Positions 2,921 through 57,722 are shown, counted from the stretch's first letter. The stretch: DNA of 64,000 nucleotides from Geosiphon pyriformis uo1 (GCA_016748015.1 JAAOMT010000494.1:426190-490189); one strand, 5' to 3'. Translations and numbers: made by a program. Notes: generated from the sequence alone by a model not told the origin.

Positions 2921-5900
2921 TTGCTAAAACAATTGATTACATGTTTATTTTATCTAATTTGATTGGTGCGGTAGTAGATCATGATGTGACTGCTGTCAAT
3001 AACTATTTTGATACTAATCATAAGGCTGTTTCTGTATCCATGGGTCTTGGTGGTTTGCTAGATGTACAACTGAACTCTTTGCATAAATAGGCAAATAAAG
3101 ATCATTGGAAATATAATTTTATGAGTGCTGATAGTGCTAAGTAAATCAAATTTAAAAAAGATATGGCTGCAAATACTGCCATGTTTTGTGATAAGTTTGG
3201 TGCTGCTGGGAAGAGTTCGGATTTGGACTCGATATGGAATACTCTTCGCCAAGTAGTGTGCTTGTCAGCAGAAAGTGTTTTTAAGAAGAAATGATTTAAG
3301 GACTATGACAGTGTCTTTAATAGGGCATCCTCCAGATTTCACAAATTAGAACTTTTGGTGTCAAGGATTGTTAAGGCCTTACGTCTGGTTTCTTATGATG
3401 AGTTTGTTTCCCTACTTAACTTATGGAGCAGTCTTGATTCTACCAATGCCTCTGTTGTTAGATTTCTTTTTCTTTCGGGTTCTCATTTTGATGCCATTTG
3501 GTCAGTTTTGGCCAAAATCAAAAAATCTTACCATTCATCTAAGTTGTCAGAATCAGGCCATGCTAGAGAATCTCAGATCAAGTTGGCAATTGACAGAAAA
3601 ATGGAGAGCTTTGAATTAAACAAGAGTCATACTATTAAGAGTGTTTTGAAACACCCTTTCCGCAAAGTGGTTTTAGACCATTTGGTGGTGGGTGATGAGC
3701 TGATTTTGGAGTCTAATCTTGTGAAATCTAAGGTGAATGTGATTATGGAGGGTTAGACTTGATTACATCAGGTGGTCATTGATGTCTCTAGTAATTGGAA
3801 TTATCAATATCAATCTTTGAATTATGTTTTTGATGAAGCCTTTTCTGGAGTAATGAGTTCAATTAGTTTTAATGAGTTGTTCAGGGTGGTTTCTGGTCTG
3901 CCTGATGGCAAAGCTGCTGGTCTTTCTAGAATTTCAAATGAACTCTAAAAGCATTGTGATAGATCTGTTTTGGATATGCTTTTGGTGTTTTTAAATTCTT
4001 GTTTGTCGTGTAAATCAGTGCCTTGCTCCTGGAAGGAGGCGTGGGTCTCAATAATCCCTAAACCATATGAGTAGAAGGGTGTACTAACAAATATGCATTC
4101 TATTGCTTTGATTGAAACAGCTTGTAAGATTTTTTCCAAGATTCTCTCTGATTGGATTTTGTTGGCATGCAGCACATTCGATATTCTTCACAGTGACAAC
4201 TTTTTAGTCTTGAAGAATACATCTACCCAGTCTCCCATTTTTGCAGTTGGTTCTATTATTGAAGATGCTCTGGAAAAGAACCATGAGCTCTGGCTTATTT
4301 TACAGGACATGAAGAAGGTGTATAACTCAGTTGGCTGGAAGCATCTCAGTAAATATTTGGTTAGGATTAAAATGTGTGACAAGTTCATTCGGTTTTTTGG
4401 TGGTATTCATCGGGATTACACCAATCGAGTTATAACAGATTTTGGGCTGACAAGTGGTTATCATGTGCATGATGGTTTGAACCAAGGGGAAGTCTTTTCT
4501 TCTCTTTTGTGGTGCATATTTTATGATTCTTTCTTGTGCAAAGTCAAGTGACAGGCGAGTGTGTATGAGTACAGACTGAATTCTTATTTTATTTCCAAAA
4601 ATGGTTGTGCTAAGTCTCAGGTTAGATTTTTTATGTTTTTTGCTGCTGGTGCCTTTGTTGATGATACAATTTGGGTTAGTAACAGTCTAAGGGCTACTCA
4701 ACATATTCTCAATGTTGCTAGTGAATTTTTTCGAATCAATGACATTTTAATTAACAATGACAAGACAATGATCATCCCTATTAATAGTAGAGTTAGCAAT
4801 TTTTCTCTTTTTATCAGTGGTTCACCTATTTTTATTGCCAGGAAGGAAGAGTCTCATTGATATTTGGGTATTTTTTTTTCAACTGAGGGCCTATCAAAAT
4901 CTAGTTTGGTTAAAGCCTATTCGAACATTTGTTTTTTTACCAATCTGGTTCTGAGAAAGACTATTACAGATAAGCAGCTCTTGTATTTAGTTTCAGCGGT
5001 TTTCTATTCTATAGTCGGTTATAGGACCCAGTTTAGTTTTGTTCCTGTTGGTGTGTACAACAAATGGGATGTCATGATTCACAAGGCCTTAAAACTCAAA
5101 TCTGGTCTGCCACTCAATTTTCCTGGTGATACAATTCACCACCCTTCCTTTTATGGTCTAAAGTCCTTTTTGCAGGTTCAATCCAAGGCCAAGATTGCCT
5201 CTCTCATTAGTTTTGTGAACTCCAGTGGTATTTTGGGACACTTATTTTCTCACAGATCTTATGACTTACAAGTTTTGTGTTGGCACCCTGTCCACCCATT
5301 GAGTTGTCCAGTTTGTATTTGTGTCAGTGCTTTTAATAACTTTCTGACTGGCCTGATTTATGTACTCTTTGATTGCAATTTGTCTTTGGATGACTCCTTA
5401 GCCAATGCATTTCATTTTATTGGTAGGGTGCTCATGTCAGCTGTTCTTGGCAAGTTGAGATTTTTTAAGTTTCTCCCATCTCTCCAGCATTATGGTATAG
5501 CTTTCATTAATCAGCTTTGTAATCATCATGGTTTTGTTTTTAGTTGGTACACATTTAAGTGGTGAAAGAGGTTGGACCCTTATGGACTCATCCCCAATTG
5601 GTTTAGGCTTTCTGCTGCATTTCTCGATGGCGTAACTTCTTCTTCTGATCCTTCTTCAGTTTCAAATGATGTTGGTCCTTTGAGTATTCTTGGTTCTGGC
5701 AAATTTTTGTCTGTTTGTGATCATCTCTCATATGTTGAAACTGGTTGTTTATCTGTCTACATGGATAGATCTTTGAGAAATTTGGATACGGTCGGCTATA
5801 AAGCTGGCACTGCTGCCTTTTTTGAGGATGTTGGTCTGGGTTTGGGCGTTGGCATTTTGGGTTTGATGTCATCCACTCTGGCCGAGCTACAAGTCATTGC

Positions 5901-6014: not shown

Positions 6015-6063
6015 TGTTACTCATAGAATATAGAAAATATAGTATTATTAGTCAGTAAATATT

Positions 6064-6350
6064 AGCCAATCAGATATAGACATAGTAAATGTGGAATTCC
6101 AAGATTCTTTTTAAAGGAATTGCAGGATTTCAGGAATTTCAGGATTCTCTAACAAGGAATTGCAGAATTCCAGAATTTCAGGATTCTTCTCATTAGGAAT
6201 TGCAGAATTCCAGGAATTCCAGGATTTCTGTCACAAGAATTGAGGAATTGAGAAATCTCAAATATGTATATATAACAGTAGCGTTAGAAACAGAAAAGAC
6301 AGAATTGACACTAAGCATTCTTAGCTTAGTTACCACAATCCTCAAATAAA
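6064..6350 (+). promoter_or_regulatory. LTR promoter: CCAAT box, GGAATT/GGATTCC repeat array, TATA box, AATAAA
   Basis: AGCCAATCAG at 6064, TATATATAA at 6267-6275 and AATAAA at 6345-6350; same order in all four family A LTRs. Confidence 0.65.
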
Positions 6351-6529
6351 TAATTATTCACTATATCCAATTTATTCTTTACTATCAATACTTCATGTTG
6401 ATAGTAACTGATACTTAACTATACTGGAACAATAGCTCTTGATCATGGCTATTGATGGGATACTAACTTGCAAATTGTCTTGGCTTATTTCTTATTTTCT
6501 TTGTTGTCTACTAACTTGATTAAAGGATT

Positions 6530-6650
6530 TACTCTTGAAGGACTTATGGAGGAATAAAACTTACTTAAAAGTACTTACTCTTGGAGGACTTACAGAGGAA
6601 TAAACTTGCTTAAAACCATACTTACTCTTGGAGGACTTATGGAAGAACTG
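6530..6650 (+). repeat. Three ~40-45 bp tandem units in U5 of the A2 LTRs
   Basis: TACTCTTG(G/A)AGGACTTA(T/C)(G/A)GA(G/A)GAA recurs three times here and at ~15566-15685; absent from the A1 and A3 LTRs. Confidence 0.8.
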
Positions 6651-6921
6651 ACATCAGGAAACAGTACTGGTATATACTTATGGAGGATATTATACCAGGA
6701 GAATCATCAACTATCAAGCTGAGCAAACAATCAACGAAACTACAGTTTCAGGAAACTACTAATAAACTGTTACCATTGAATCTCTGTCCATTATACAAAG
6801 AACTCAATTGGAAAACCTTCAGATAAAATACCTTCAGATTATTATTGTCACTAATCGCTTTGAGCACCAAGTTATGAATTTGTTATTTGATTTGAGACCT
6901 CAAAGAATCACCTGTAATATT

Positions 6922-6938
6922 TGGTGCTCCCTGTGAGG
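6922..6938 (+). other. Primer-binding site of A2
   Basis: TGGTGCTCCCTGTGAGG two bases after the LTR. Complementary to a tRNA ending GGAGCA-CCA (elongator Met, Ile-UAU or Thr type; not resolvable by eye). Confidence 0.85.
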
Positions 6939-6951
6939 TATAATTCTACAG

Positions 6952-9900
6952 AGAACTAGTACCAACAAGAACAAACCAAAAGTAGCAGAATCAGAAAATA
7001 TAGGAGCAAACCATTTAGGATTTGTAAAATCCTTGTTTCAACAATACAGCCAACAATTAGGATTAAACAGTAATCATTACCCAGCCAAATTAGCCTTCAA
7101 CTTCTATGTCAATGACAAAATCACTGAATGTTTAAGAGGAACAGTTAACATTAAAGCAGCAAGAGAAAATTTCTATATAGAATTATTTCAATACACCAGC
7201 TTACCAAGAAATCACAGTTTCACCCTAATCATCAGAGAAATTAATCAAACCATTAAAAGATATGTGCAACAACAATTTTCTATTACTTATGTAGACAAAG
7301 GTAAAGGAAGATTACAAACACCAGCAGTAATGCCTAAAGGGATACAACTACCAACTTGAAAGAAACAAAGAATTGAATCTTTATCATATCTATTATATCA
7401 TCACACACTCGGAAGCACTATCAATATTTCATCTACAGATGCGTCTACACCAAACGCGACATCAATATTTGGACGATTCCCATTCCAAAGTAAACAAAAG
7501 AAAGCAGAGTTATTAGGACCATACGGCAAATATTTCGAGGGATTTAAATTACGATCACCAACACCATCAAGAATTCGATCACCACCACCTCCACCAGATT
7601 TTGGAATCTCTGATCCATGGAAGGTAACGGAATCAGAAGAAGAGAAAGAAGAAGAAACTGAGGATCAAGAATTCACTTACCAGAACCTAATCACTGAAAA
7701 CCCGGAATTGAGACCCCAAATCTTCAGAACCAGCAAAATTTAAATTCAGTAAATTTGAAAGTTGAAACTCTGAATATTCAAACACTGCCAACTCAGGCTA
7801 ATTGAAACTCCAATCTAATTAATCAACCAAACTTACCTCTGGTAATCATTATCAATCAATCACCAATTGATCTAATAGCTGAACCCATACAGCAGCCACT
7901 TCAATTACCACTTCAACAAAATCAACAACCACTTCAACAGCCACCACAACCACCCAACTTAGATCCAATGGCCTATGCACCAATTGCAAAACTGGATAAT
8001 TTCACCAGCAAAGAGAATGACACTCAAGTATGGCTGAACAATATGAAAAAAGCCATCACAGCCAATGGATGGAATGATGCCTGAGAAATGCAAGCCATTC
8101 CTTACTTTCTCAAAGATACTGCCAATTCATGGTATTAGAGCTTGATCAATAAACCACAAGACTTCAATGCCTTCAAAGTGGAATTTTTAAGATACTTTAG
8201 CAACAATAACAGTATCAACTGCCTAGTCAATACATTCACTATCATGAAGCAAGGAGAAACTGAAGCAGTCACTACTTACCTGAGATACTTCCATAGAAAT
8301 CTGCACCAGATCCAGGCAATTGATGCCAACTATTTTACAGTGCCACAAATCCTCAACCAGTTTATCTGTGGCTTGCACAGCAGCATCTTGCAACATGTAC
8401 ACCCATTGCATCCAGGCATCCTTCAAGATACAGTTACACATGCCAGAGATTTTGAATCAGCTGAGTCCGAGGCCAATCATGCCCAAGCTGTTAATCTAGT
8501 AATGAATAGATCATCTGAATTGGAGTCCAAATTGAAACAATTCAATAATTCAATTAATCAGAAATTAGAAGGATACTTAACTGACAATCACGCAATTTAT
8601 CAACCACTCCAATGATGCAGCAATCCAAGAAACTACAATTATTCTTAAAATCAAATGCATTCCTCAACATCGGCCAATCAGCAGTGGTAGCCAGAAATAC
8701 ATGTCTGCCACAACTGTGGTAAACAAGAACATATTAGAGCAAATTGCAATGTTTATAACCATCAGCAATTAGGAAATCAATACAGAAACCCTAATCGCCA
8801 ATTTCAAACTCCGAGATATCAACAAAATCAGGAACAATATCAAAACACTTACCTGCCAATGACGCAGCAGCCAATTTACCAAGCACCAGTATATCAGACT
8901 CCAGTTTATTAACACAACCACCAGCAATATATCAACCACAGCCACAAGTAATCTATCAACTCCAATCAATTTAAACACTGTCTCAGAATTCAGTTAATAT
9001 GACATCAAGCCACCCCAGACCTAGAATCACACAAAACTAAAGATTGGCAATGGTTGTCCACCAACTGATCCCCAGTTCTTCCAACTCACTATCAGGATTG
9101 CATTCTCAGAATTCAGGTACCAATGCCACCTAAAACCTGAATTTCCAGAACTATTTAAGTCTTCTGATTATCTCAGAAAATGCCACCACCAACAATTCGG
9201 GATCCAACCAACAACAAGCACTTATCAACAACATTCCACCAGCAACTGTCACCAATGATAAATCACTCATGGCCATCTTTCCTTTTGACTTGAAAGAAAC
9301 AATCGAAATTCTATTATTCAGTAGAGCAGCTTTGGAAGAGAAGCCAATCACCACCATGTATACAGATGCCAAAATCAATGGCCATGCCATCAAACTGATC
9401 TTGGATAATAAATCAGCTGGCAGCATCATAACAAGACAACTCATGGATCAATTAGATCATTGAGTTGACCGAACTGCCAGTGCAAGGATCATCACAGCTG
9501 ATAGAGTGATCAAAACTCCAATAGGTAAAATAGACAACCTATCTATCGAAATTAATAGCATCATGGTACTTATCAAAGTCTTTGTGATGGAAGCCACTCA
9601 GTACCAAGCTCTTGTTGGAAATAATTAGCTATCCAAAACAAATGCTATACTCGATTGAATGGCACAAGAGCTCCAACTGAGCCAAAATGGTCAGCATACT
9701 CAAACACCAGCCACTTGTGGTCACTTTAAGCCAAGCAATGCCCAACTGCTCATTGAGTTCAAGGAAAAAACAAAGAAACTAACCTGAGAAGCATATCAGG
9801 TTTTATGGGCTGATATCAATCACAATAAACTGCTGCCCATACTTGCCTAGAATAAAAATGACCATGGAAAAGGAAAGCAGAAAGAAGAACATACTTGGGA

Positions 9901-12887
9901 AACTACTATTGGTGCTTCACTTGTGGCGAACAGTTGCTCGACGAAGGAATGTGAAACAACATTCCTGGTCAAGGAGAAATGTGTGACACTTCATGCCAGT
10001 ACACAATCCTTATCAGTGACTGGGTAAGTTGTGGTATGCCAATAACTGCTGCTTGGCACTAAGCAATCTCTCGCCTGGACAGATATCCACACAATGAAGA
10101 CAAAATCTGGCAGATGGCGAACGCCAAAGTAGAAGGCACCACGCCCAGCAAAATCTTGGAAATCAAGAACAATCCTCCCAAACCAGTCAACATTATCCTA
10201 GTTCCCAACCCAAACGCTTTTTTTGACATTGAAACCAATCCAGAAGACTTCCATGAACATTATCAAAATTTAGCACTGACCAGAGAGGAACAGGAAGAGT
10301 GGTTAGCACAGTTAAACACTTGATTATGTGATTACTGTTTAATCTCATGTGACTTTCAATATTGTAATGAGTGTAACCTCATTTACAAACCACCAATCTG
10401 CATAATCTACATGATTCCAAAAGAAGAGGAACCAATCAGCAGCTGTACATCGGAATCAAAATTACCATTTGATCCTGATTCAAACTCTGACAATAATGAT
10501 GACAAAAATACTGGTTCCAGCTCCGTTCAAAATAGTGATAACAATGACAATGATTCAAACTCAGATGCAAATTCCAATTTAAAATATGAACAATATATCG
10601 CAATCTCTGATTTGACCAGAGAATTAAAACTAAAATGGTTCAGTGATAATAATGAAGATATCATGCCAGAACACATGCATAATACTAATGCCAGATTTGA
10701 TTTGAGATATCTAAGAAAAGATGTCATCAAATTGGAACCACATTCATGCATCTGTCTTAATTTAAAAATAGCACTGGAAATTCCAGCAACAACAATGGTT
10801 CAATTAGCATTTAGGAGTAGTTTAGCAAAAAGAGGGATTAATATAAGAGAAGGAATAATTGATGCAGAATATGTAGGAAATATCATTGCTATGCTACAAA
10901 ATAACTCAGAAAAGGCCTATATAATAGAGCCCAACAAAAAGATAGCACAGACAATATTTCTGCCTCTGATTAGAGTAGCTCAGTTAGTATCAGTAAGAAA
11001 GAGGGAGGAATTAGGAATAACAGTGAAAGGAATACAAGGATTCAGATCAACAGATAGAGTAAATGTACCAGTCAATATGGCAGAAGAAAAAATTGTTGAC
11101 CAAGAGGAAATTATCTCAACGGGTCAAACAATTTTCATTCCACTATATGGCCAGTATATGATAGGAATAAAGCGGGAGGTAAAAGAACAGAATCAGATTT
11201 TTGAAGCAGAACAACTCTTTGTGAATCAGGAGAGATTGGACTTGTTAATCTCCATATATCAGTCAAAGATTACAGCCACATCAAAATTCTCATCTACAAT
11301 AACACAGGAAATGTCATAGTAATATTAGCTGGAATCACCATTGGATATTTAAGCACTGAAATAGAGGATCAACTACCAAGCACTATTCTGGACTTTCCAC
11401 AGTTTTGTGGATATGTTGATATTACATCACAAACAATATACAGACAAAGCAAATGTTATTTGCTTTAATCAGAACAATTGGAATAAATAAACATGGGAAA
11501 CTTAGATTCACTCCAATGTATGCAGCTCAAAATGTTGCTCAACAATTTCAATGACATCTTTGCCAGTGAAAACGAGTTTGGCTAAACTGACATTATCCAG
11601 CATCAGATTAAGACTGGAGATACAATGCCAATTAAACAAAGAACATACAGAGTACCACCAGCTAACCACGAGATCATTTGTCAGAAGATAAACCAAATGC
11701 TTAACAATGGGCTAATTCAGCCATTAATAAGCCCATGGTCATCACCAGTAATACTCGTCTGGAAAAAAAATGGGAAAATCCACTTTTGTGTGGATTATAG
11801 GAAACTCAATGGAGTAACTCATAGAGATAGCTACCCCATTCTATGGATTCAAGAATTATTCAATGCTTTTGGTAGAAACAAATAGTTTTTAACATTAGAT
11901 CTAAACAGTGGTTACTGGCAAGTAGCCATGAATTCAGCCAACAAAAAAAAGATGGCATTCACCACCAGAGAAAGGAATTTTGAATTTAAAGTAATGCCAT
12001 TCAGCTTAACCAATGCACCAACAACTTTCCAATGGCTAATGGAAATTGTTTATACTGGCTTATTGTGGAAATCAGTAGTTGTATACTTGGACAACACCAA
12101 TGTATTCTCAAAAACATTTGATGATCATCTTCATTATTTTCAACAAGTGTTCAAAAGACTAAAAAGAACAGGACTAAAGTTAAATACAACCAAGTGTTTT
12201 TTTAGCAAGACGGAACTAAAATTTTTGGGACACATAGTCAGCAAAGACAGCATCAAAATGGATCTGGAAAAAATAGAGATAGTAAAGAACTTTCCAGTAC
12301 TGACCAATATGACAGAACTGAAATCATTCTTGGAATTCACCAACTACTATTGATGTTTTATCAAGAACTTTTCCAAGATAGCACAGCCATTCAACCAACT
12401 ACAAACCAAGAATACAAAATATGAATAGATAGAAAGTTAACAAGAAGCTTTTGATATTCTAAAAAGAAAGCTTATTCAAGCTCCAGTACTGATTTATTCA
12501 GATCACAGCAAACCATTCATCATCACCATCAATACATCTGGCCAAGCATTGGGAGTGGTACTATCTCAGAGAGGACCAGATGGCAGAGAACATCCAGTAG
12601 CATATGCCAGCAGAGATTTAACACCAGCCAAAAAGAACTATGGAATACTAGAACAAGAACACTTAGCAATATACTGAGCAATCATGAAATGGAAAGAATA
12701 CTTTAGCCAGAAGTTTGAAGTATACACAGATCACAAAGAATTAACATCACTTCAAAAACAAGAATTTGGAAATGGAAGACAGTCAAGATAGAAAATGGCA
12801 CTTGCACCATATAATTATACTATACATTATAAAAAGGGAAAAGACAATGGAAATGCTGACAGTTTGTCGCAAATGAGACAAATCTAA
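6952..12887 (+). pseudogene. gag-pol of A2 without integrase: N-terminal domain, capsid, CCHC knuckle, aspartic protease, Cys-rich domain, dUTPase, RT, RNase H
   Basis: QGETEAVTTY; CHNCGKQEHIRANC (~8706-8747); LILDNKSAGSII (decayed DSG); SPWSSPV, FCVDYRKLN, MPFSLTNAP, VYLDNT; ends NADSLSQMRQI* at 12885-12887. Stops and a few frameshifts. Confidence 0.92.
10630..11052 (+). other. Trimeric dUTPase domain within A2 pol (decayed)
   Basis: NARFDL, RSSLAKRG, GIIDAEYVGNI, KIAQTIF and QGFRST correspond to dUTPase motifs 1-5. Confidence 0.9.
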
Positions 12888-12949
12888 GAACATTTCAGCC
12901 CAAAAATATAACAAAACCAGAACAATACCAATGAAAAATATAACAAAAG

Positions 12950-14332
12950 ATAAACATACAAAAATATCAACAACTACAACATTATATAAACACTCAACAG
13001 TTCAAGGAGAATTTATCTTAAATGGAATGAAAGAGTATCAAACAACAATCAAAATATTTTATCACTCACCAAAATATACTTTATCGGAAAAATAGAAGAG
13101 ATCTAGAGCAACCAATTAGAGTAATTACAGAGCCAAAAAAAGAGACAATATTATTCAACATGCATTCAAATCCAACAGCAGAACACTTTCACAAAGAAGC
13201 AACCATGGAAAGAACCAAAAAAAGATACTATTGGCCATCAATGTATCCAGACATCATCCAATATGTTCAAAATTGTGATGCTTGTCAATGAAAAGGAGAT
13301 ACAAAACCCAGTGAACTATTAAGACCAATCAAAATGAGACAACCATTCGACCATATTGGAATTGATTTAGTCGGACCATTAACAATCACCAGCGGAGAAA
13401 ACAGGTATATAGCAGTAGCCATAGACTATTTTACTAAATTGCCAGAGGCAAAAGCAATTCAAAAAGCAGATGCAGAATCCATTGCTGAATTCATTCATCA
13501 AGATTTAATTTGTTGACACGGATGTCCAAAGAAATTATTATCAGACCAAGAAACTCATTTTGTGAACAGAACATTAACAGAATTGAGCCAAAGATTCGGA
13601 ATTAAAAGACCACTATCATCATTATACCATCCACAAACCAATGGATTAGTAGAAAGATTCAATAGAACACTGTGTAAAGCAATAGCTAAGCTTAGCCAAG
13701 AAAACCAGAACGATTGGGATTTGTTCATACCATCAGTACTATTTGCTTATCAGACAATAAAACAAGATACTATACAAGCAACACCATTTGAATTAGTATA
13801 CAGGAGAACAACAACGTTATCAATAGAGAGAGAAATTAAGACATATCCAGCTGAACCAATAACAGAAGAAAATTTTCAAGAAATATTGCTGAGAAGAACA
13901 TATGACTTAATGGAAACATTGGAAAACAAATGAAGAAGAGCAGCTGATAATATTCAAAAGTCACAAGAAAAACAGAAAGAAAGACACGATAATCAACTAC
14001 CAGACAAACCAGTTGAATTCAAGATTGGAGACAAAGTATTACTACATTGTACCAAAATAGAAAAACAATGGAATAGAAAATTTGACCCCAAATAAGACGG
14101 ACCATTTCACATAGAAGAAATTCTAGGAAATGGAGCTTACAAATTAAGATTGAATAACAAAATTTTGACCAAAGCAGCACATGGAGATTAACTAAAACCA
14201 TACCACCATATAGCATCATCATCTACCAGTAATATTCCACAATTAGGAGTACAGAGAATACTAGTCCAACCAGATGAGATTCTACAAGATCTGGAACCAA
14301 TCATTATTATTGACAACAACACATCCAATTGA
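12950..14332 (+). pseudogene. Integrase of A2, separate reading frame from RT-RH
   Basis: (ATA, probably ex-ATG) NIQKYQQLQHY..., MHSNPTAEHF, CDACQ, GIDLVGPL, YHPQTNGLVERFN; stop TGA 14330-14332. Confidence 0.9.
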
Positions 14333-14355
14333 TCAACAAAAGAATATATAAAAAC

Positions 14356-15016
14356 ATGGTCAACATGACAGAAGAGATCAGAAAAATAGAAATTATGGAC
14401 AATATTCATTTACTAGCCCAACAAATTTTTCAATTAATCCAACACCAGGAGATAGAAATTACAATTAATTAACAAACCATTCATTACAAAAATACGGCAA
14501 AGACACCACAAAACAAAACACAGAAAAAACTTGAAAATGTTGTTGACAAAATTATAACCAAGATAAAATTGGCCATAAAAGAACAACAAATAGTTAGATT
14601 ATACCAAAAACTTACCAGAAAAACTTGGACTTGGTAGACACAACAATTTCTAAAAAACTATTGTTATTTCTACTTGGGACAACATGTAAATATCCAGAAT
14701 TTGTACACCGACAAAACAAAACAGTTTATTTGACACAACAATATTGAGACAACTGGAACAATTTGTGGGAAAAAACAATCTAACCACACAAGCTTGAGCC
14801 ATTTACTGGCTATATATGGGATTTTAAGACCGACCAGAAATCTTACTTAATACAGCAATAGATACAGTTATGAATAATCAATTGGGAAAAATGACCAACA
14901 CCCAATTTGAAGAACTACAAACTAAAATAACACAAGTAATACTCGAAAAAGAAGTTCAAGAAATAATTCAAAAAGGGAAATTAAAGGAATTAGATTTTGA
15001 TGGAGCTCAATATTAA
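14356..15016 (+). pseudogene. ORF3 of A2
   Basis: MVNMTEEIRK...ELDFDGAQY*; one 1-bp insertion near 14726; homologous to 1405-2064. Confidence 0.8.
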
Positions 15017-15029
15017 AAAAAGGAAATAA

Positions 15030-15956
15030 TGTTACTCATAGAATATAGGAAATATAGTATTATTAGTCAGTAGATATTAGCCAATCAGATGTAGATGTAA
15101 TAAATGTGGAATTCCAAGATTCTCTTAGAGGAATTGCAGGATTTCAGAAATTTCAGAATTCTCTGACAAGGAATTGCAGAATTCCAGAATTCCAGGATTT
15201 TTCTCATCAGGAATTGCAGGATTCCAGGAATTCCAAGATTTCTGTTACAAGAAATTGAGAAATTAAGGAATCTCAAATATGTATATATAGCAGTAGCATT
15301 AGAAGCAGAAAAGACAGAATCAACACTAAGAATTCTTAGCTTAATTACCACAATTCTCAAATAAATAATTATTCACTATATCCAATTCATTCTTCACTAT
15401 CAACACTTTATGTTGATAGTAACTGATACTTAACTATACTGGAACAATAGCTCTTGATCATGGCTATTGATAGAATACTAACTTGCAAATCACCTTGGCT
15501 TATTTCTTATTTTCTCTTTTATTTTTCTTTATTTTCTTTGTTGTTTACTAACTTGATTAAAAGATTTATTCTTGGAGAACTTATGGAGGAATAAAACTTA
15601 CTTAAAAATACTTATTTTTGAAGAACTTACAGAGGAATAAACTTGCTTAAAACCATACTTACTCTTGAAGAACTTATGGAGGAACTAACGTCAAGAAACA
15701 GTACTGGTATACACTTATAGAGAATATTATACCAGAAAAATCATCAACCATTAAGCTAAACAAGCAATCGACAAAACTACAGTTTCAGGAAACTACTAAT
15801 AAACTGTTACTGTTGAATCTCTGTCTATTATACAAAAAACTCAATTGGAAAACCTTCAGATAAAATACCTTCAGATTATCATTGTCACTAATCACTTTGA
15901 GCACCAAGTTATGGGTTTGTTATTTGATTTGAGACTCCAAAAAATCACCTGTAACA
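15030..15956 (+). repeat. 3' LTR of A2
   Basis: TGTTACTC...CCTGTAACA, preceded by a purine tract and followed by TSD GCAG. Confidence 0.95.
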
Positions 15957-28266: not shown

Positions 28267-29890
28267 ATGGAAGAAACAGTTACTTCAGAAACTTCCCTGG
28301 ATGCTGCCTTACCAGAATCGTCTACCGTTTTGGGTAAAAAATCAGTTCAAGAAAACAAAGCACTCCAAACTCAAGATCTTAATCCCTATTTAAAATGGAC
28401 CAGTAAACGTGGCTCTTTAGCCTCACGTCGAGCAGACCTGAATGCGTTTTATAGCAAAGCAAGCGGCATCCTTGGAGTTGGCAATCATAAACGTAAACAA
28501 GTGAAAATGAATCTTGTAAAATCTCTACGCATTGGACCTCCGGATTCTCGAACATACCCTGTGATAAAAAAGAAAACATCCGAGGATTATGTCCTTTCCA
28601 AATGCTTGCTTTATGGAAATTATCCCAACTATTACAATCGCCGAAGTAAAATTAAACCTGAGAATGATCCTCGACTGGGTCTCATAGAAAAAGCTTGGCT
28701 TGAAAATCGATTTGTACTAGATGTTGGATGCAATTCCGGCGAGTTTACAATAGAGCTCGGTATTTAACGTGCTAGCATAATTAGTTTTGCCGCTTGAATT
28801 GACTGTGCTTTTTCTACATTGACGTCAATATTTATTCTTTTATTGGCAAAGCAATTCGTTTCTCACCGAGCAAAATCTTTGGAATTGACATAGATGAATC
28901 CTTGATACAGAAAGCTCATCGCAATGTTCAAAACAAATATTCTCCAACGGTGAACACTCCTGAATTCTTTGACAACTGCTCTGATTCTCCTAGCACCAGC
29001 GTGAATCATTCTAATTTTGATGCAAATGATGATTGGGGCTCGACCAGTAACTCCACTCCGATAACTCATGTAGAAAGCGAAACTGAAGATCACACAGTAC
29101 AAAAAAGCAACGTCGTCTCGAAAAAATATATTGATAAAAATAATCAGGATATATTCAACCAAACTTATGATAGAGCCCGAGATGTAAATGGGATGATTCC
29201 AGTTCTATGTGATGTGAAAACGGACCAGGGCGGTAAATTCCCTCGCAATATTAACTTCCGATGTTGTGATTGGATGAAAGAGAAAGTAGAGTTTGAGAAA
29301 TATGACACTATTCTAGCGTAAGTTTGTGCTTTGATTTTTCTGTATGCCGCTATTGACTTGCTAAGCCCCAACTCATCATCTACAATTATGACCCTTATGT
29401 AATTGCATTAGACTCAGCATAACGAAATGGATTCATTTAAACTGGGGAGACTCGGGAATTAAAAGTTTCTTCCATAAAGTATACAACTTTTTGAAACCGG
29501 GGGGTTTTTTTGTCTTAGAACCACAAGAATTTGATACTTATCGGAAATACAAGAATCTTTCAGAGGTAACTCTTAACTTCCTAGTATCGTTTTAAGTTGG
29601 TTTCCCGCTTCTTTTTATATATCAATTTAATATCATACTACATTTATGGAAATTTGCCAAGATCCATCTTTCAAATTTCAATGCAATAAAGTTTAAACCA
29701 GCCGACTTTGAAGAGTTTTTATTAAACGAAGTTGGTTTCTCGTCATTTCGGAAATTATCAAACGAAGAACCTTTCGCTAATAAAGGTTCTTGAATATGTA
29801 CTGCTATTTTATATCCCTGATTGTCATTTCAAATTCCTCTTGACCGATTTTTTAGGTTACAGACGGAAAATAATTTTGTATATTAAATGA
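28267..29890 (+). CDS. BIN3: Bin3/MePCE (Bmc1-like) RNA 5'-methylphosphate capping methyltransferase; exons 28267-28759, 28852-29317, 29412-29565, 29662-29785, 29856-29890
   Basis: [55 protein letters not shown] and GYRRKIILY. All four GT-AG introns preserve frame. Confidence 0.95.
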
Positions 29891-30674
29891 AAAGCTGAAG
29901 GAATTTTTCAACCTTGTGGCTTTTTCGAGGCTTACTCCTTTCGTGATAATTCAACAATTACAGCCAACTTGATTAGATAACAAAACTTAACCCTTCTGAA
30001 TCAAAACCAATACCAAAACAATTGTGTTGTTTGATTCTTTTACGTCTGATCTTTCAAATTTTCAAACCATCAAACTTGTCGGAGAATTGATTCCGAGCAA
30101 AAGGTGAAAATTATATGGTTTGGAGCTTTCATAATTACAAAGGTTGTGACAAAGCGACTAATATATTCTTCTTTGTGCCAATCAGGTCCAATTGAAGCCA
30201 ACCAAAATACGGAATTAGAGATTAATAAGATTTGGGATGCGGTATCAATCATATGTTCTTTTGCTCGAGTTGCAGCTCCCGATGGCTCGTCATTTTGTTG
30301 TTGACTTTAAAGCTTGTCAGCTCACCACTCGGAGCTTTCACTGTTTGACTAGCCCTTCTATCCTATCCTTGATATTACTTATTTGGGGAACCTTTTGAAG
30401 ATACTAAAAAATTTTACAAAAAGACTGCACAAAAATTGTGTCCTATAATGTGGCTGCTGAATGCCCTTAATATAGGTGATGCGATATTTGTCTAATAAAA
30501 GAACCAAAGTTCTTGATTAATAAGTCGAAATTGCATGCAAAGGAGAATCAACTGAAAAAACCTAGAAAGACGGAAAGAAATCAGTATGTTCGTGATGTGT
30601 AAATAGATTAAAAGCAATCGCGTCCACCGCCAAATGGTAATGTCAGGTATACAGATCTGAATTGATCCAAGTTG

Positions 30675-33799: not shown

Positions 33800-34852
33800 A
33801 TGTCACAAGAAGACACTGCAATCTTGAATTTGGTAAGTTATGTCTCATCCCTTTCTTTCAATGTTGGGAAAACTTCTATTGTTGTTAAACAAACTGTGCC
33901 AAAATTTATACTTGAGGTTTATTACCTTTTAATCTTCTCTTGACTAACTTTGAGGAGTTTGTTTCTGTTTACCTTTTTATTTAAACTTGATTCATAGGGG
34001 CCCTTCAAAGAAAATGCCCCAAATAATCAACAAGGAAATATTCCAAAAGATGATACTAGCATTCAACCTTTGCAACCTACTCTTATTCCGGCTCAAACAC
34101 CTTCTCAGAATATTGCAATTCCACCTAGGTATTTTTAAACAAAAAACTTGACCATAGAAATTTAAAGAGATAAAATCATTGGTCAATTGAATTGATTCTA
34201 CTTTCTATCTCCGAAAATTTAAAGTACGAGTGGACAGCAGCCTGGCGTGCAAATTCTTTCTGCTTCACACCTTACCCCCACCAACACACCATTACAACCA
34301 AAACAAGAGCCGGTGGTAATTCATCCTGCACCCTTACCTATTCAACCTGCTCCACCGATGACTCCTCAACATTCAGTTGTGCAACCACAAAGTCCACAAG
34401 TAACACAACAACTTCAACATACACCTCAGCATACACCTCAACACACACCTTTAAGATCAAATTCAACATCAACGACACCCCAAACTACTCCCTCTGGTAA
34501 ACCTGTAGTCGGTAGCGAAGAATGGCATCGACAACGTCGTGAGAATCACAAAGAAGTTGAACGTCGTCGTCGAGATACTATAAACGCTGGAATTAATGAA
34601 TTGGCCAAAATCGTTCCCGGCTGTGAAAAAAATAAAGGGAGTATTCTCAATCGTGCGGTTCAATACATTCAACAATTGAAGGAGAATGAAGCGGCTAATA
34701 TTGAAAAGTGGACATTGGAGAAACTGTTAACAGATCAAGCCATTCAAGATCTGCAGGGTCAGCTTGATATGTACAAAACTGACAACAATCGTCTCAAGGC
34801 TGAATTGGAGGAATTACAACAACCATTGAAAAAGAAACAGCGAACTGAATAA
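33800..34852 (+). CDS. CBF1: Cbf1-type bHLH-zipper transcription factor; exons 33800-33832, 33998-34128, 34225-34852
   Basis: EEWHRQRRENHKEVERRRRDTIN...KGSILNRAVQYIQQLKENEAANIEKWTLEKLL is the fungal Cbf1 signature. GTAAGT..TAG and GTATTT..AAG introns keep frame. Confidence 0.93.
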
Positions 34853-47274: not shown

Positions 47275-49745
47275 TTTAGTTTTTTTTATTAATATTTTAC
47301 AAATAAGATCCAAATGTTATTTAATATAATACATTAATCTAAGTAATTTAAACTAAGTATAAATCATCTATTTTTTGCATATAACCAGCCACTTAAGCCA
47401 ATTAAAGCAACACTATAAATTTATTTTGACAGAAATCATAAACCAATACCAGAAAAAAATTTGCAAAGCTTATAAAAACTAAAACTAATACAATGTATTT
47501 TCATAATTTTAAGCAATCTAACAATATTATCAAAAAACATAGACAATAAACCATAGATTTCTAAAAACATAGAACTATTATGTATAATTAAATCTTTTTT
47601 CTTCAAAATCACTTTATATTTAGATTTTACCAATTATATCTCAGCCTAATAAGCTACTTTCAAGTTCTATACCAAATTGATAACTTTTATATTAGTAGTC
47701 TTAGTACAGTTAAAAACAGATACAGTTTCTAAATACTATTCTCTAAACACAAAAACTCTTGTACAAGACAGTATATACAGCATTATCAAATACACACAAA
47801 GAAAATAAAATAATGACAAGTTTAAGCCTAACATAAAATTTTACTAAACCAAATATGAACTAAACAATTTCTTGCAAATATTAGAGTTTATTATATACAT
47901 AAAAAAATAGTTAAAAAGTTTTACTTTTTTACAATAAAAACACAACACACTAAAATATTTTTTATTATATAAAGACTTCCACATAGCAACTGACAAACAA
48001 TAATGCAAAACTTTCATAAAATATAAGTGCAAATTAGTAGTAAACTTACTTATAAAACTAGATGCCATATGTAAATTAGAATATTAAACTAATAATATCT
48101 AATTCCAATCTACATCTTCAATTATGTTATTATTAATATAACTTAACTTAGATTCAATCTCTTAACAAGCATAATAAACAGTTTTAAAAACATTGTAAAT
48201 AAAATAACAAACATTTTCAGATATCATAATTTTACCAGTTTTAATGTATTTTTTTTGGCAAGAACAGAAAACATCAAATTCGAATACAAAGCCAAAATTC
48301 ACTAACTTGTTAGCATACTTATTATCTAAGACACCTGAATAGTCTTTAACCTTAGATTAAAAAATATTAAGTTTTTTAAATCTGATAGTATTTATAATAC
48401 AATGCTTTTCAAGCCAACAAAAATTGTGAAAGTTTAATAAAGCCATATCTAATTCTGTAATACAAGCGTTGTTACCAGTAGAATTTTAGCTATTAATTAA
48501 CATGAAATTACTCTCATAATTCCTATTAATTAGCATATATTATTATTATTTCGATTATCACTTATTATTTAATCAAATCAAATATTATTACTCAATCAAT
48601 AATCCGATTTGTACTCTAGAAATTAAGATGATCAAATTACACAATACTTTAAACCATTTAATATTCAAAAATTGGCCGAAATTAATGAAATTGGCCGAAA
48701 TAATCAAATATTTCAGTGAAATAATTTGTAGTTTGCCAAAATGTATCTTTAGTTTACCCAAATTATAGTAAAAAGAAAAGTGCAAGTTCAAAGACTAGTA
48801 CTACAACAAATTGTATAAAAGAAGAGCTTCTCTCTTCAAGAAAATGTATCTTCTCATAGTATCTTATCATAGTATTCTACTTTAGATATCTTAATTGAAA
48901 CAAATCACCTTTTATACATTCAAATAAAAAAAATTAAATATTCTAAAAACAAATCCTTTGATTATTACACTTGAAATTTTCCAACACAACTAACGTTTTG
49001 AAATTGATTAACTATCAATTTCAATAAACTGTTAGTGATTCCAGGCCTGAATAGAAAACGTTTCCCTTAATAAAATCCTATTTCTTTTACATTTTTTTAT
49101 TTTTCTTTCTTTTTTTTATCATAATCATTAGGGTAGCTTACAGACAAGATTCCTGTAGAAGAGTTGACTTTCACAGCAAAGTAACTACACATTTTTAGTG
49201 AGCTTCCAGACAAGCAATTTCTGGAAAAAAGTTGACATTTACTACAATGTAACTACATAAAATAACTGGCAAGGAATTGGCCATTTCACTTATAAGTCCA
49301 GTGATTCAAATTATAGGAGATAATTTGAAGATAAATTCAGTTACTAAAGGTCCAACTACTTCCTAAAAACGTGAATTCACAGCAAATCAACATTAATAAC
49401 ATTCAAAAAAAAAGACCAAAAACCTCTGGTAACAGCATTTAAAGCAATTTGATTATCTGAATATATCACAACAGCACTAAAAACCAGCACATATTTCAAG
49501 ACCAAAGTAATAGTCTGCAATTCTGCTATTATAGAAGAGACCAAACTACCAATTTTAACATTAATACTTAGATTTATATTAACAAAAAATACAGTCACAT
49601 TACATTTTATATTACAGTCAAGGAAATTTCCTAATTTGTTAATAGAAATCATTCTTTTTATGATAGTAAAAAAAATTAGAAAAGTTTTTGAAAATGATTA
49701 TAGAACACTAAACAAAATTTCTAAAATATTACAATATTCAATTAT
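47275..49745 (-). mobile_element. Old LINE 3' relic (RNase H to 3' UTR), split by solo LTR 48470-49434
   Basis: IAELQTITLVL, YSDNQIALNA|CITEL, YFMKVLHYCLSVAMWKSLY, VLCFYCKKV; eroded 3' UTR at ~47300-47415. Confidence 0.82.
48470..49434 (+). repeat. Solo LTR of family B with 4-bp TSD GCGT/GCAT
   Basis: TGTTACCAG...CTGGTAACA; homologous to 56740-57722; no PBS; LINE frame rejoins across it. Confidence 0.93.
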
Positions 49746-53365: not shown

Positions 53366-56300
53366 TTTGGTGCTCCTTGTAAGATATAATTTTACAAAAA
53401 ACCAGCACCAATAGCAGTCATCCAAAAGTAACAGAACCAAAAAGAATAGGGACAAACTATTTAGGATTTACCAAATTTTTGTATTAGTATTATTGTCAAT
53501 ACTTGGGATTAACCAACAACCACCTATTAGCAAAATCAGTCTTCAATTTCTATGTCAACAAAAGAATCTCATATTTGCTAAAAGTACTAATAGAAACCAA
53601 CTCAGCCAGAAGAAATTTCTACAACAAATTAATCTAAAACACCAGCCTACTAGCAAATTATAATTTCACAGCAATCCTCACTAAAATCAATAAAGAAATT
53701 GAAATTCACACTTAACAAAAATATCCAATTATTTATGCAAACAAAGACAAAAAAAAACTACAAACACCAGCAGTAATATTTCAAAGAATACAACCACTTA
53801 CTTGAAAGAAAACAAAACTTGAATCACTAACCAATCTATCATACCACTATACATCTGGAAGCACTATCAACATTTCATCAGCAGGCACATCCACATCAAA
53901 TACAAAAACCCTATTGGCACAAATACTTTTTCAAAGTAAACAATCAAAAACTGATCTATTAAGAATCTATGGCAAATATTTTGAGGAATTTAAATTGTGA
54001 TTACCAACACTATCAGGATTTTAATCACCACTACCTCCACCAGATTTTGGAATTACAAGTCCTTAGGAAGTAATGAAATCAGAAAAAAAGGAAAATAACA
54101 ATCAGAAATTCAATTACCAAAACCCAGAAATTGAAACTCCAAATGTTCAAACTTAGCAAAACCCAATTTTAAAAAATCCGAAAATTGAAACTTTAAATCT
54201 TTAAACTCTCCAAAATCAGAACAATCCAAACCCTGACATAATTAATTAACAAAACTTACCTCTAATAAACATGATTGATCAGCCACCAATTGAAAGAATT
54301 CAACAGCTGCAATTACCACATCAACAACAATTACAGCAACTACTTCAACAACTGCTATAAAAACAATAACAAATAGTATATACACCAATTGCCAAGATCA
54401 AAAAATTTACTGGTGAAGAAAATGATGTCCAGGTGTGACTAAACAATGTCAAAAAAGCCATCATAGCCAATGAATAGAATGACACCAGAGTCATGCAAGC
54501 CATTCCATACTTTTTTCAGGATACCACCAACTCATAGTATTAAAGTTTGGCCAACAAATTTCAGGATTTCAATGCATTCAAGCTTGGATTTCTACAATAT
54601 TTTAGCAATAATAATAGTATTAATTGTCTAGCCAATATCTTCACTACCATTAAACAAGGAAAAAATGAAGCAGTCACTACTTACCTAGAACACTTTCACA
54701 GAAATCTGCACTAAATTTAGGCAATACAAGCCAATTATTTTACAGCACCACAAATTCTAAATCAATTTATCAGAGGTCTGCACAGTAGCATCTTTCAACA
54801 TATATGCTCATTACATCCAGCAGACCTTCAAGCCACAATTACTTATGTCAGAGATTTTGAAGCCACTAAATTAAAAGCCAATTATGCCTAAGCCATAAAT
54901 TTAGTAATGAACAGATTATTTGACTTAGATTTTAAGCTAAAACAATTCAGTAACACAATTAACCAGAAATTAGAAAAATACTTAGCTAACAACAATTAAG
55001 CAATTTATTAACCTCTACAACAATACAATAATCAAGGAAACTCTAATTATTTCCAAAATCAACCACATCCATTATTATTAACCAATCAACAGTGACAACA
55101 GGAAATGTATACTTGCCACTATTGTGGTAAACAAAAACATCTGCAATTTGAATGTTGCAAAAGAATAAGCAACCAATGACCGGAAAATCAATACCAAAAC
55201 CCTGATTGCCAATTTCAAATTCTAAATTATCAATTAAACTTAAAATTATATCAACCAAATTATCTATCCATGATGCAGCAGCCAATTTATTAACCCCAAA
55301 AAATTCCAATACCACCATCAAACTCAGCTCAGATAATATCAAGAAATCTCTGATCTAGGATCACTTAAAACTAGAAATTGGCAATGATTGTCTACTAACC
55401 AATTCTCAGCTCATTAAACCAGCCATTGGGATCATGCCAGTAAAGTTTAGGAACCAGATACACCCAAAATTCAAGTTTTCAGAACTATTTAAGCCTCTTG
55501 GTAACTTCAGAAAACATCTTATCTAACAACATAGAACCCAACCAAAAATAACTACTCACCAATAACATATCTTCAGCCACTGTCATCAATAATAAATCTT
55601 TAGCAGCAATTTTTTCTTTCGAACTAGAGGAAGTGACACCAGTACTATTATTTAGTGGAGTCACACTTAATGTCAAACCTATCACTGCTATGTATATAGA
55701 CACCAAAGTTGATGACCATTCTATCAAGCTCATTCTTAATAGTAGATCAGCCAGCAGCATCATTACATGACAATTCATGAACCAATTAGGTTGCTGAGTT
55801 GATCACACTGCCAGTGCCAGGATTATCATGGCTAATGGAGCCACAAAAACTCCAATTGGTAAAATTAATGACTTCTCATTTGAAATCAATAGTATCATTA
55901 CTCTCATCAAAGTCTTGATGATAGAAGCAACACAATACCAAGCACTAATTGACAAAAATTAGTTGTCTAAAACCAATGCAGTGCTTGATTGGACTATGTA
56001 AAAGCTTCAATTCAGTATGAATGGTCAGCACACATGTGTACCAGCCATGTGCAACCACTTTTGGATGAACACAACACCCACACTACTAATAGAATTTGAA
56101 AAAGAAAAAGAAAAACCTACCTGGGAAGCCTATTAAGTCTCGTGGGTTGACATTGATCACAATAAACTACTACTAATACTTTTTTGGAATAACAAAGAAA
56201 AAGGCAAAGAAAAAAACAAAACCAAGGAAACTACAGCCACAGAAGAAATAACCAGTGGCTGAAAATGATCATATTCATATGAACCCATCAAAAAACCACC

Positions 56301-56739: not shown

Positions 56740-57722
56740 TGTTACCAGACAAAATTAGAGATATTGTTTAGCATGAAATTACTCTTATAAATCTTATCAT
56801 TAATTAGCATATATTATCATTCAAATTATCACTTATTACATTAGCAAAATATCCGAAATTATCATTTAATTAATAACCCAATTTGTACATAACACAAATG
56901 TAACTTAATTGCGATGATCAATCATGCAATACCCTGAATTATGTAACATTCAAAAAGTTCGCCAAAATTTGTAAGAAATTTGCCGAAATAATTGATAGTT
57001 CACCGAAATATCTAATAGTTTGCAGAAATAACTTGTAGTTCACTGAAATGTATCTTTAGTTTAGCAAAATTATAGAAAATAGCAAAGTTCAAGTTCATAG
57101 AATAGTGTTATGACAAGTTGTATAAAAGAAGAGCTTCTTTTTTCGAGAAAATATATCTTATTTCAGATTTAATAATTAGAATCATTCTTTACATACAAAA
57201 ACAAAATAAATATCAAATAATTTGAAAAATCAAATCCTTAATTATTTTCTTTTTAAAATTAATTAATTCTTACTAAAACAGTTTTGAAATTGATTAGCTA
57301 CCAATTTCAATAAACTGTTAGTGACTCCAGGCCTAAATAAAAAAACGTTTTCCTTGATAAAATTCTATTTCTTTTACATTTCTTTTATTTTTCTTTTCTT
57401 TTCTTATTACAATCATTAGGGTAGTCTACAGACGAGATTTCTGTAGAAGAGTTGACTTTCACAGCAAAGTAACTACACATTTTTAGTAAGCTTCCAGACA
57501 AGCAATTTCTGGGAAAGAGTTGACATTTACTACAACATAACTATATAAAGTAACTGGCATAGAATTGGCCCTTCTACTTATAAGCTCAGCAGTTTAAATT
57601 ATAGAAGATAATTTGAAGATAAATTCAGTTACTGGAGGTTCAACTACTTCCTAAAAACGTGAATTCACAACAAATCAACATCAACAATATTCAAGAAAAG
57701 AGACCAAAAACCTCTGGTAACA
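56740..57722 (+). repeat. 5' LTR of B1
   Basis: Perfect 10-bp terminal inverted repeat TGTTACCAGA/TCTGGTAACA; TATAAAA at 57121. Confidence 0.95.

Follow-up and report, generated by a model that had tools for sequence, protein, structure and literature searches.

A candidate GUG start for an N-terminally extended Gag in a Ty3/Gypsy element of Geosiphon pyriformis

Element A1 and its setting

The window, as we call the whole stretch of Geosiphon pyriformis DNA analysed (64,000 nucleotides), contains a decayed, full-length Ty3/Gypsy element of family A. This element, designated A1 (6015–15956), is the source of the gag gene under study. Its genes lie in the order gag, protease, dUTPase, RT-RNase H, separate integrase, and ORF3, and all are interrupted by stops. 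Pfam domains in the frames of the window follow the order Retrotrans_gag, dUTPase, RVT_1, and rve; the protease was recognized from homologues and translation. Two LTRs (TG...CA) and a target-site duplication, together with the gag-protease-RT-RNase H-integrase order, place the element in Ty3/Gypsy; the TA that ends the 5′ LTR of A1 instead of CA reflects decay.

6015–6919, plus strand: 5′ LTR of A1 (TGTTAC...TGTAATA), 89% identical to the 3′ LTR at 15030–15956, with the 4-bp target duplication GCAG on both sides
6264–6275, plus strand: TATA-like box, putative in function, kept in 4/4 LTRs
6922–6939, plus strand: PBS, a TGG-initial 18-mer 2 nt past the LTR, with the in-frame stop TGA at 6934–6936
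9350–12887, plus strand: protease, dUTPase, RT, and RNase H, degraded by stop codons and by frameshifts, with the closing stop at 12885–12887

The LTRs also keep a CCAAT box near 6066 and AATAAA at ~6346. Adjoining the CCAAT box, U3 carries repeated GAA/TTC units (6096–6250), which we take to resemble heat-shock elements. The PBS presumably matches elongator tRNA-Met; a search of the 64-kb window for tRNA genes found none.

Two further pieces of family A, designated A0 and A4, and an element of a related family B (RT 59% identical) are present in the window. The family B element sits inside the pol region of copy A4 (56740), and a solo B LTR occupies 48470–49434. Families A and B both have a Cys-rich stretch between protease and dUTPase (9900–10500 and 60350–61050). 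Two host genes presumably encode a Bin3-like methyltransferase (28267–29891; four introns, with donors that include GTTCTT) and a bHLH-like protein (33800–34852), labels that follow in part the first-pass annotation.

Comparisons were drawn from related DNA and proteins. The related DNA comprised 1094 contigs on 6892–6996 with a variant threshold of 3%; its variant table is complete for ~6922–6966, and the table covering 6984 and 6408 is represented by 40 of 384 rows. The protein sample comprised 295 related proteins, and each column count uses only the proteins readable there. Homologues listed for the first gag segment (51 and 120) were all named Geosiphon pyriformis proteins, and scans of viral contigs found no relatives. 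Three short RT loci of Gypsy type in bacterial MAG contigs (L074–L076) are probably eukaryotic contamination.

The front of gag and the codon at 6982

The first-pass annotation had described a gag frame that is open after the PBS and has no AUG for >120 codons. The first in-frame ATG is indeed codon 127 (7330), where 42/50 homologues have Thr, but that description overlooked a GTG at 6982–6984 and an AUG at 7968. Absence of an AUG after the PBS is family-wide, and the frame is closed upstream. Either of two hidden starts could have undone the first-pass account, and both searches came out in its favor. ATA 6940 does not look like a mutated ATG: no A>G row occurs at 6942 at the 3% threshold in the 1094 contigs, and the 52 read-through proteins (of 295) have Ile in 51 cases, Leu in one, and Met in none. 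A true Met of family A, encoded by the pre-capsid AUG, has decayed to Ile in 13/80 proteins, whereas none of the 52 has Met here. Decay from ATG to ATA at 6940 was therefore rejected. An open frame with an AUG through U5 is precluded by TGA 6934–6936, which closes the frame within the PBS and is free of T>C and A>G variants among the 1094 contigs at 3%. AUG 6874 was also rejected as a gag start; A0 and A4 have ACA at this position, and the frame of the AUG stops in the PBS.

6979–6987, plus strand: AAA-GTG-GCA (GTA in A1), likely GUG start of an N-extended Gag
57765–57773, plus strand: family B equivalent, AAA-GTG-GCG (GTG 57768), in an element with 5′ LTR 56740–57722 and pre-capsid AUG 58500
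6982–7290, plus strand: N-terminal five-helix Gag domain, predicted with pLDDT of at least 90 on 73 residues and shared by homology among families A and B and two more families
7968–8870, plus strand: conserved AUG followed by a capsid-like domain and a zinc knuckle (A1 carries one frameshift near 7712)

The N-terminal extension is coding, as indicated by its substitution pattern, the five-helix model, and its homologues. Transversions between A1 and A4 over 6952–7359 number 13, 11, and 24 at the three codon positions (p = 0.047), with no gaps. The domain has homologues in family B as well as in two additional families from Geosiphon; the A and B versions are 22% identical over 59 columns. It is barely conceivable that the extension is untranslated and that AUG 7968 is the only Gag start. 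This AUG is conserved at the capsid boundary (Met in 65/80 proteins, Ile in 13/80; AUG likewise in family B), as such a model would require, but the coding-type transversions, the confident fold, and a domain common to four families all argue against it. A Foldseek search of the domain against PDB and viral structures returned no match at E 0.001, and Pfam and the ESM Atlas gave none; the best VIA match had Z 6.9 with an rmsd of 3.7 over 109 aligned. Such an outcome establishes neither a new fold nor the lack of a matrix-like fold.

The codon that opens this domain behaves unusually for valine. G stands at 6984 in 95,598 of 101,836 depth units (94%, 86 contigs, among 40 of 384 rows), and A1 has GTA. 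The corresponding protein column contains V 150, M 20, L 6, E 1, and I 0 among the 177 proteins readable of 295. Three control Val columns vary to Ile and never to Met. To judge from sequence, the V/M pattern is that of a decaying GTG, a codon that accounts for 15/153 Val codons in these elements. In 12/12 proteins from three distant families, the domain opens with Lys-Val, followed by Ala in 8 and by Val in 4; the spacing from Lys-Val to the folded core varies. Among 164 non-terminal cases, the residue before Val is Lys in 141, Asn in 10, and Thr in 7, although 3 of the 7 Thr cases are splice artefacts of gene models. All three residues are encoded by A-initial codons, which keeps A at –3 despite the exchange of residues. 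Together with G at +4, A at this position forms a strong start context. A near-cognate GTG in favorable context thus lies in frame with, and upstream of, AUG 7968. On the other hand, Lys-Val-Ala may be retained for protein reasons, and two of the families are known as proteins alone, with the codon unseen.

AUG depletion was assessed by about a dozen shuffle tests, whose p values are uncorrected. The middle of U5 has no AUG in A4 and one in A0, against 4.6 expected from shuffling in each. Family B LTRs have 0 vs 4.4 and 2 vs 6.0 AUGs after the TATA box (none in the 5′ LTR), compared with 7 vs 8.1 and 4 vs 5.0 in U3 controls. A1 and A4 have 2 AUGs in common over 1016 nt of the extension and 8 over 630 nt of the capsid region (p = 0.009). 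Depletion in A1 itself is not significant (U5, 4 vs 6.4 and 3 vs 5.3; extension, 7 vs 6.2); we read its extra ATGs as CpG decay. The U3 control of A0 is also AUG-low (2 vs 5.2, p = 0.036).

An intact relative, L010, has a short LTR and a weak AUG 23 nt from the PBS start. This AUG is followed by 489 nt that are AUG-free in any frame (shuffle mean 4.5, p = 0.006) and then by a strong AUG before the capsid region. L010 falls in one RT branch with A1, family B, and all 8 loci with a split integrase (SH-aLRT 96 in a quick tree of 38 rows, from which 40/76 loci were dropped for short RT matches); four other rows of that branch have no integrase match within their short contigs.

On balance, we lean toward a model in which GUG 6982 would start a long Gag and AUG 7968 a short capsid form by leaky scanning. 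Comparison with L010 suggests that families A and B may have replaced a weak first AUG by GUG. Ribosomes would scan a leader that retains most of U5, and weak initiation at GUG 6982 would yield the long Gag with its five-helix N-terminal domain. Ribosomes that leak past the GUG would start a capsid-first Gag at AUG 7968.

By analogy, the element would work most like glyco-Gag of MLV and would have its leader logic in common with plant pararetroviruses. MLV glyco-Gag starts at a CUG upstream of and in frame with the Gag AUG and has a 264-nt extension with a signal sequence (PMC3265304). An N-extended Gag begun at a near-cognate codon in favorable context, upstream of an ordinary AUG, would be common to both. 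MLV is a retrovirus that uses CUG, 264 nt, and a signal sequence, whereas a putative GUG, ~990 nt, and a five-helix domain are found here in a fungal Gypsy element. The leader of rice tungro bacilliform virus (PMC5902531) resembles that of family A in its 7-codon uORF, its non-AUG first start (putative in family A), and its AUG-free stretch for leaky scanning. If true, an N-extended Gag that starts at GUG and carries a new helical domain would parallel retroviral glyco-Gag in a fungus and would account for the introns that annotation pipelines invent at these loci. In the open-access literature, we found neither a GUG-started N-extended Gag nor a PBS-spanning intron for a fungal element; either one would be unusual for an LTR retrotransposon. 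Intact members of the clade exist in metagenomes (L008 and L010), which opens the translation question to reporters.

The LTR leader and the proposed splice

The first-pass annotation had explained the missing AUG by a 548-nt intron (6404–6951) that removes U5 and the PBS and joins an LTR AUG to gag, with mRNA and packaged genome as separate RNAs. We consider this a serious but less likely alternative, for reasons that involve the following features.

6379–6407, plus strand: hairpin 1, whose 3′ arm carries AUG 6395 and GT 6404
6430–6454, plus strand: hairpin 2 with AUG 6445 (A at –3, G at +4), kept in 4/4 LTRs; the uORF has 24 codons in A1
6404–6525, plus strand: candidate short intron, predicted; 122 nt in A1 and 141–158 in the other LTRs, 41% T, two ACTAAY boxes
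6404–6951, plus strand: 548-nt intron of the first-pass annotation, predicted from donor/acceptor phase and gene model P0114
6526–6870, plus strand: middle of U5, AUG-poor and A-rich; frame differs between subfamilies
6862–6929, plus strand: predicted 11-bp pairing of 6862–6872 with the LTR end and PBS (6919–6929), the same in copy A4

Much of the described anatomy holds. ATG TTG ATA/GTAA(C/T)T is kept in all four family A LTRs (6395, 2431, 15410, and 52877), and downstream of the donor each of the four carries two ACTAAY boxes plus a pyrimidine tract (dinucleotide-shuffle p 0.001–0.052). The donor GTAACT had been equated with that of intron 3 of the host Bin3 gene. That intron does start with GTAACT at 29566, in a four-intron model that gives a 423-aa open frame, but the family donor is GTAATT, since 6408 is C>T in 85% of related DNA (among 40 of 384 rows). 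Likewise, the acceptor AG at 6950–6951 is in phase with gag as had been claimed (6951/6952, phase 0), but this junction recurs in just one other copy within the window, where the triplet is CAA, not CAG (53395–53397). A joint from 6403 was sought among the listed rows of related DNA contigs, which show presence and not absence, and none was found.

Donor and acceptor are both in phase 0, which has a 1 in 3 probability by chance, and AUG 6395 has a weak context, as leaky scanning needs. One database gene model starts MLIRTST (P0114; 1/295 proteins). CAG at the acceptor is kept in 95% of depth despite a Gln codon usage of 24 CAA vs 2 CAG, and 6871–6951 is 38% T, as in host introns. Two subfamilies keep an open, in-phase frame between AG 6951 and the GTG (9 and 8 codons), a finding that fits the spliced model and counts against a GUG start. 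Against the 548-nt intron, the host introns in the window measure 70–96 nt (4/4), and an A-rich, AUG-poor U5 middle is unneeded for an intron. Family B lacks a conserved LTR AUG after its TATA box and thus cannot use one for its homologous domain. Conservation of both ATG and GT is accounted for by hairpin 1 (10–12 bp, z –2.2 to –4.2; no compensatory change among the 4 sequences). Gene models, all of them predictions, more often join AG 6951 to donors 6871 or 6877.

Nor did the acceptor stand out from background G>A decay, the comparison that the first-pass annotation had proposed. G6951 has decayed in 5.0%, compared with 16.7% at G6953, but C6931 in the same CTG context has decayed in 5.2%; within the window, decay affects 6/33 CAG and 22/54 AAG. 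Low G>A at the acceptor was therefore discarded as proof of selection, being matched by the CTG/CAG context controls. The claim that gag needs a spliced leader AUG is thus right about the in-phase donor and acceptor and about the lack of an AUG after the PBS, but the splice is unnecessary because a conserved GUG in optimal context and a pre-capsid AUG offer starts, and because family B has no LTR AUG.

The two models could coexist, in that all three codons, AUG, GUG, and AUG, would share a single frame in a 6403–6952 mRNA. A broader version, which we regard as doubtful yet worth keeping in view, holds that the clade would splice out the PBS, either through the 548-nt intron or through 6404–6525 plus 6871/6877–6951. 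Translated and packaged RNAs would be distinct, the forms of Gag would be tuned by LTR-AUG, GUG, and capsid-AUG, and integrase and ORF3 would be made separately. If true, an intron across the PBS would resolve the mRNA-versus-genome conflict by splicing. In composition, U5 has T-rich ends (6404–6525 and 6871–6951) around an A-rich middle, a pattern that resembles a pair of short introns better than a single long intron. The middle (6526–6870) is non-coding because its frame is not kept between subfamilies; a coding middle exon was rejected, as phase and stops differ among the 4 LTRs. U5 also contains a copy of the tRNA 3′ end (6862–6872), invariant in 4/4 LTRs and able to pair with the PBS. 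The 3′ half of the PBS (6931–6934) can pair with the proposed acceptor (6948–6951). The family B LTR has an intron-like anatomy of its own at 57317–57420, where a pyrimidine tract and TAG accompany the donor GTTAGT; a strong donor, GTRAGC, lies at 57486, but there is no AUG.

For the favored GUG start, the chief obstacle in the leader is AUG 6445, which would impede scanning unless spliced out, bypassed, or untranscribed. Excision of 6404–6525 would delete it. It is tempting to speculate that donor 6404, if real, serves mainly to clear AUG 6445 through this host-sized intron and not to provide the Gag start.

Two other routes to gag appear far less probable. In the first, ribosomes that have translated the uORF at AUG 6395 would bypass U5 by shunting and initiate at AUA 6940 or AUU 6943. 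We give this little credence. The 7-codon uORF opened by AUG 6395 ends at 6418, and its length and stop are kept in 4/4 LTRs; the distance of the ATA from the PBS start, 18 nt, is close to that of the L010 AUG, and the predicted stem ends at 6929. However, in centroid predictions on both decayed copies, no helix forms between the uORF end and the PBS, and the stem begins 440 nt downstream. In rice tungro bacilliform virus, by contrast, a large stem directly after the uORF is needed (PMC5902531). Shunting would also leave the GTG and family B unexplained. Even less credible is a splice that creates an AUG by joining a donor whose exon ends in A to AAAG/TG at 6982. An A precedes donor 6404 as well as three candidate donors of family B, and host introns 1 and 3 end in AAG, but Asn before Val in a 10-protein subfamily removes the AG while keeping A at –3, and the 31 nt upstream are T-poor with earlier AGs.

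Spliced gag RNA has precedents. The elements copia, BARE1, and EVADE express Gag from spliced RNA with introns in or after gag and an AUG behind the PBS, and BARE separates translation and packaging pools by two promoters (PMC3735527, PMC7197481). The spliced-leader model would have spliced gag RNA in common with these elements and would differ in that their introns are not upstream of gag. Diaspora of soybean has predicted LTR donors and acceptors near the gag start, as here, but has an AUG at gag; that 2005 paper states that an intron upstream of gag was not then known from any LTR element (PMC1142308).

Separate integrase and ORF3

12950–14333, plus strand: integrase in a separate frame, with ATA at 12950 where relatives carry AUG
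14356–15020, plus strand: ORF3 after the integrase, broken

An integrase within the RT polyprotein is usual for Ty3/Gypsy but does not define it. A stop follows RNase H in A1, in family B, and in 8/76 related loci. The integrase AUG overlaps the RT-RNase H stop as ATGA in L005, L021, and L024 (2511, 4028, and 2121, respectively), lies a few bases before the RT stop in L001 (1401) and L003, and follows a short spacer in L008, L010, L014, and family B; L001/L003 and L021/L024 are near-copies. The integrase is, as these sequences indicate, split clade-wide with its own start. The first-pass annotation had taken the split to point to splicing, but the integrase AUGs of the 8 related loci and family B make splicing unnecessary for it. 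In A1, AG 12898 is in phase with ATA 12950, which leaves 6403–12899 as a candidate junction.

Elements with partly similar programs are known. In foamy virus, the LTR contains the major splice donor, upstream of the poly(A) signal, and Gag is made from genomic RNA (PMC5035957, PMC7828637). Common to both would be a donor within the LTR close to the poly(A) signal and a product of pol that is expressed separately from Gag; unlike in foamy virus, the candidate A1 donor lies ~53 nt past AATAAA, and only the integrase is separate. Cer1/CERV of C. elegans combines a Gypsy element with a splicing program and an accessory product that has the Gag N-terminus in common, but differs in expressing Gag-Pol from unspliced RNA (PMC3315495, PMC10309623).

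The overlap or near-overlap of the integrase AUG with the RT-RNase H stop suggests termination-reinitiation in an LTR element. A stem-loop just before the integrase AUG in L008 (~4300–4340), L010 (~5193–5232), and L014 (~2594–2633) has two compensatory pairs among the 3 sequences and no Rfam match; it is possibly an internal-initiation or reinitiation signal. A third ORF after the integrase recurs in the clade with little obvious similarity (A1, 14356–15020; L001, 2794–3495; L005, 3721–4689; L010, 6576–7061; L024, 3328–4266).
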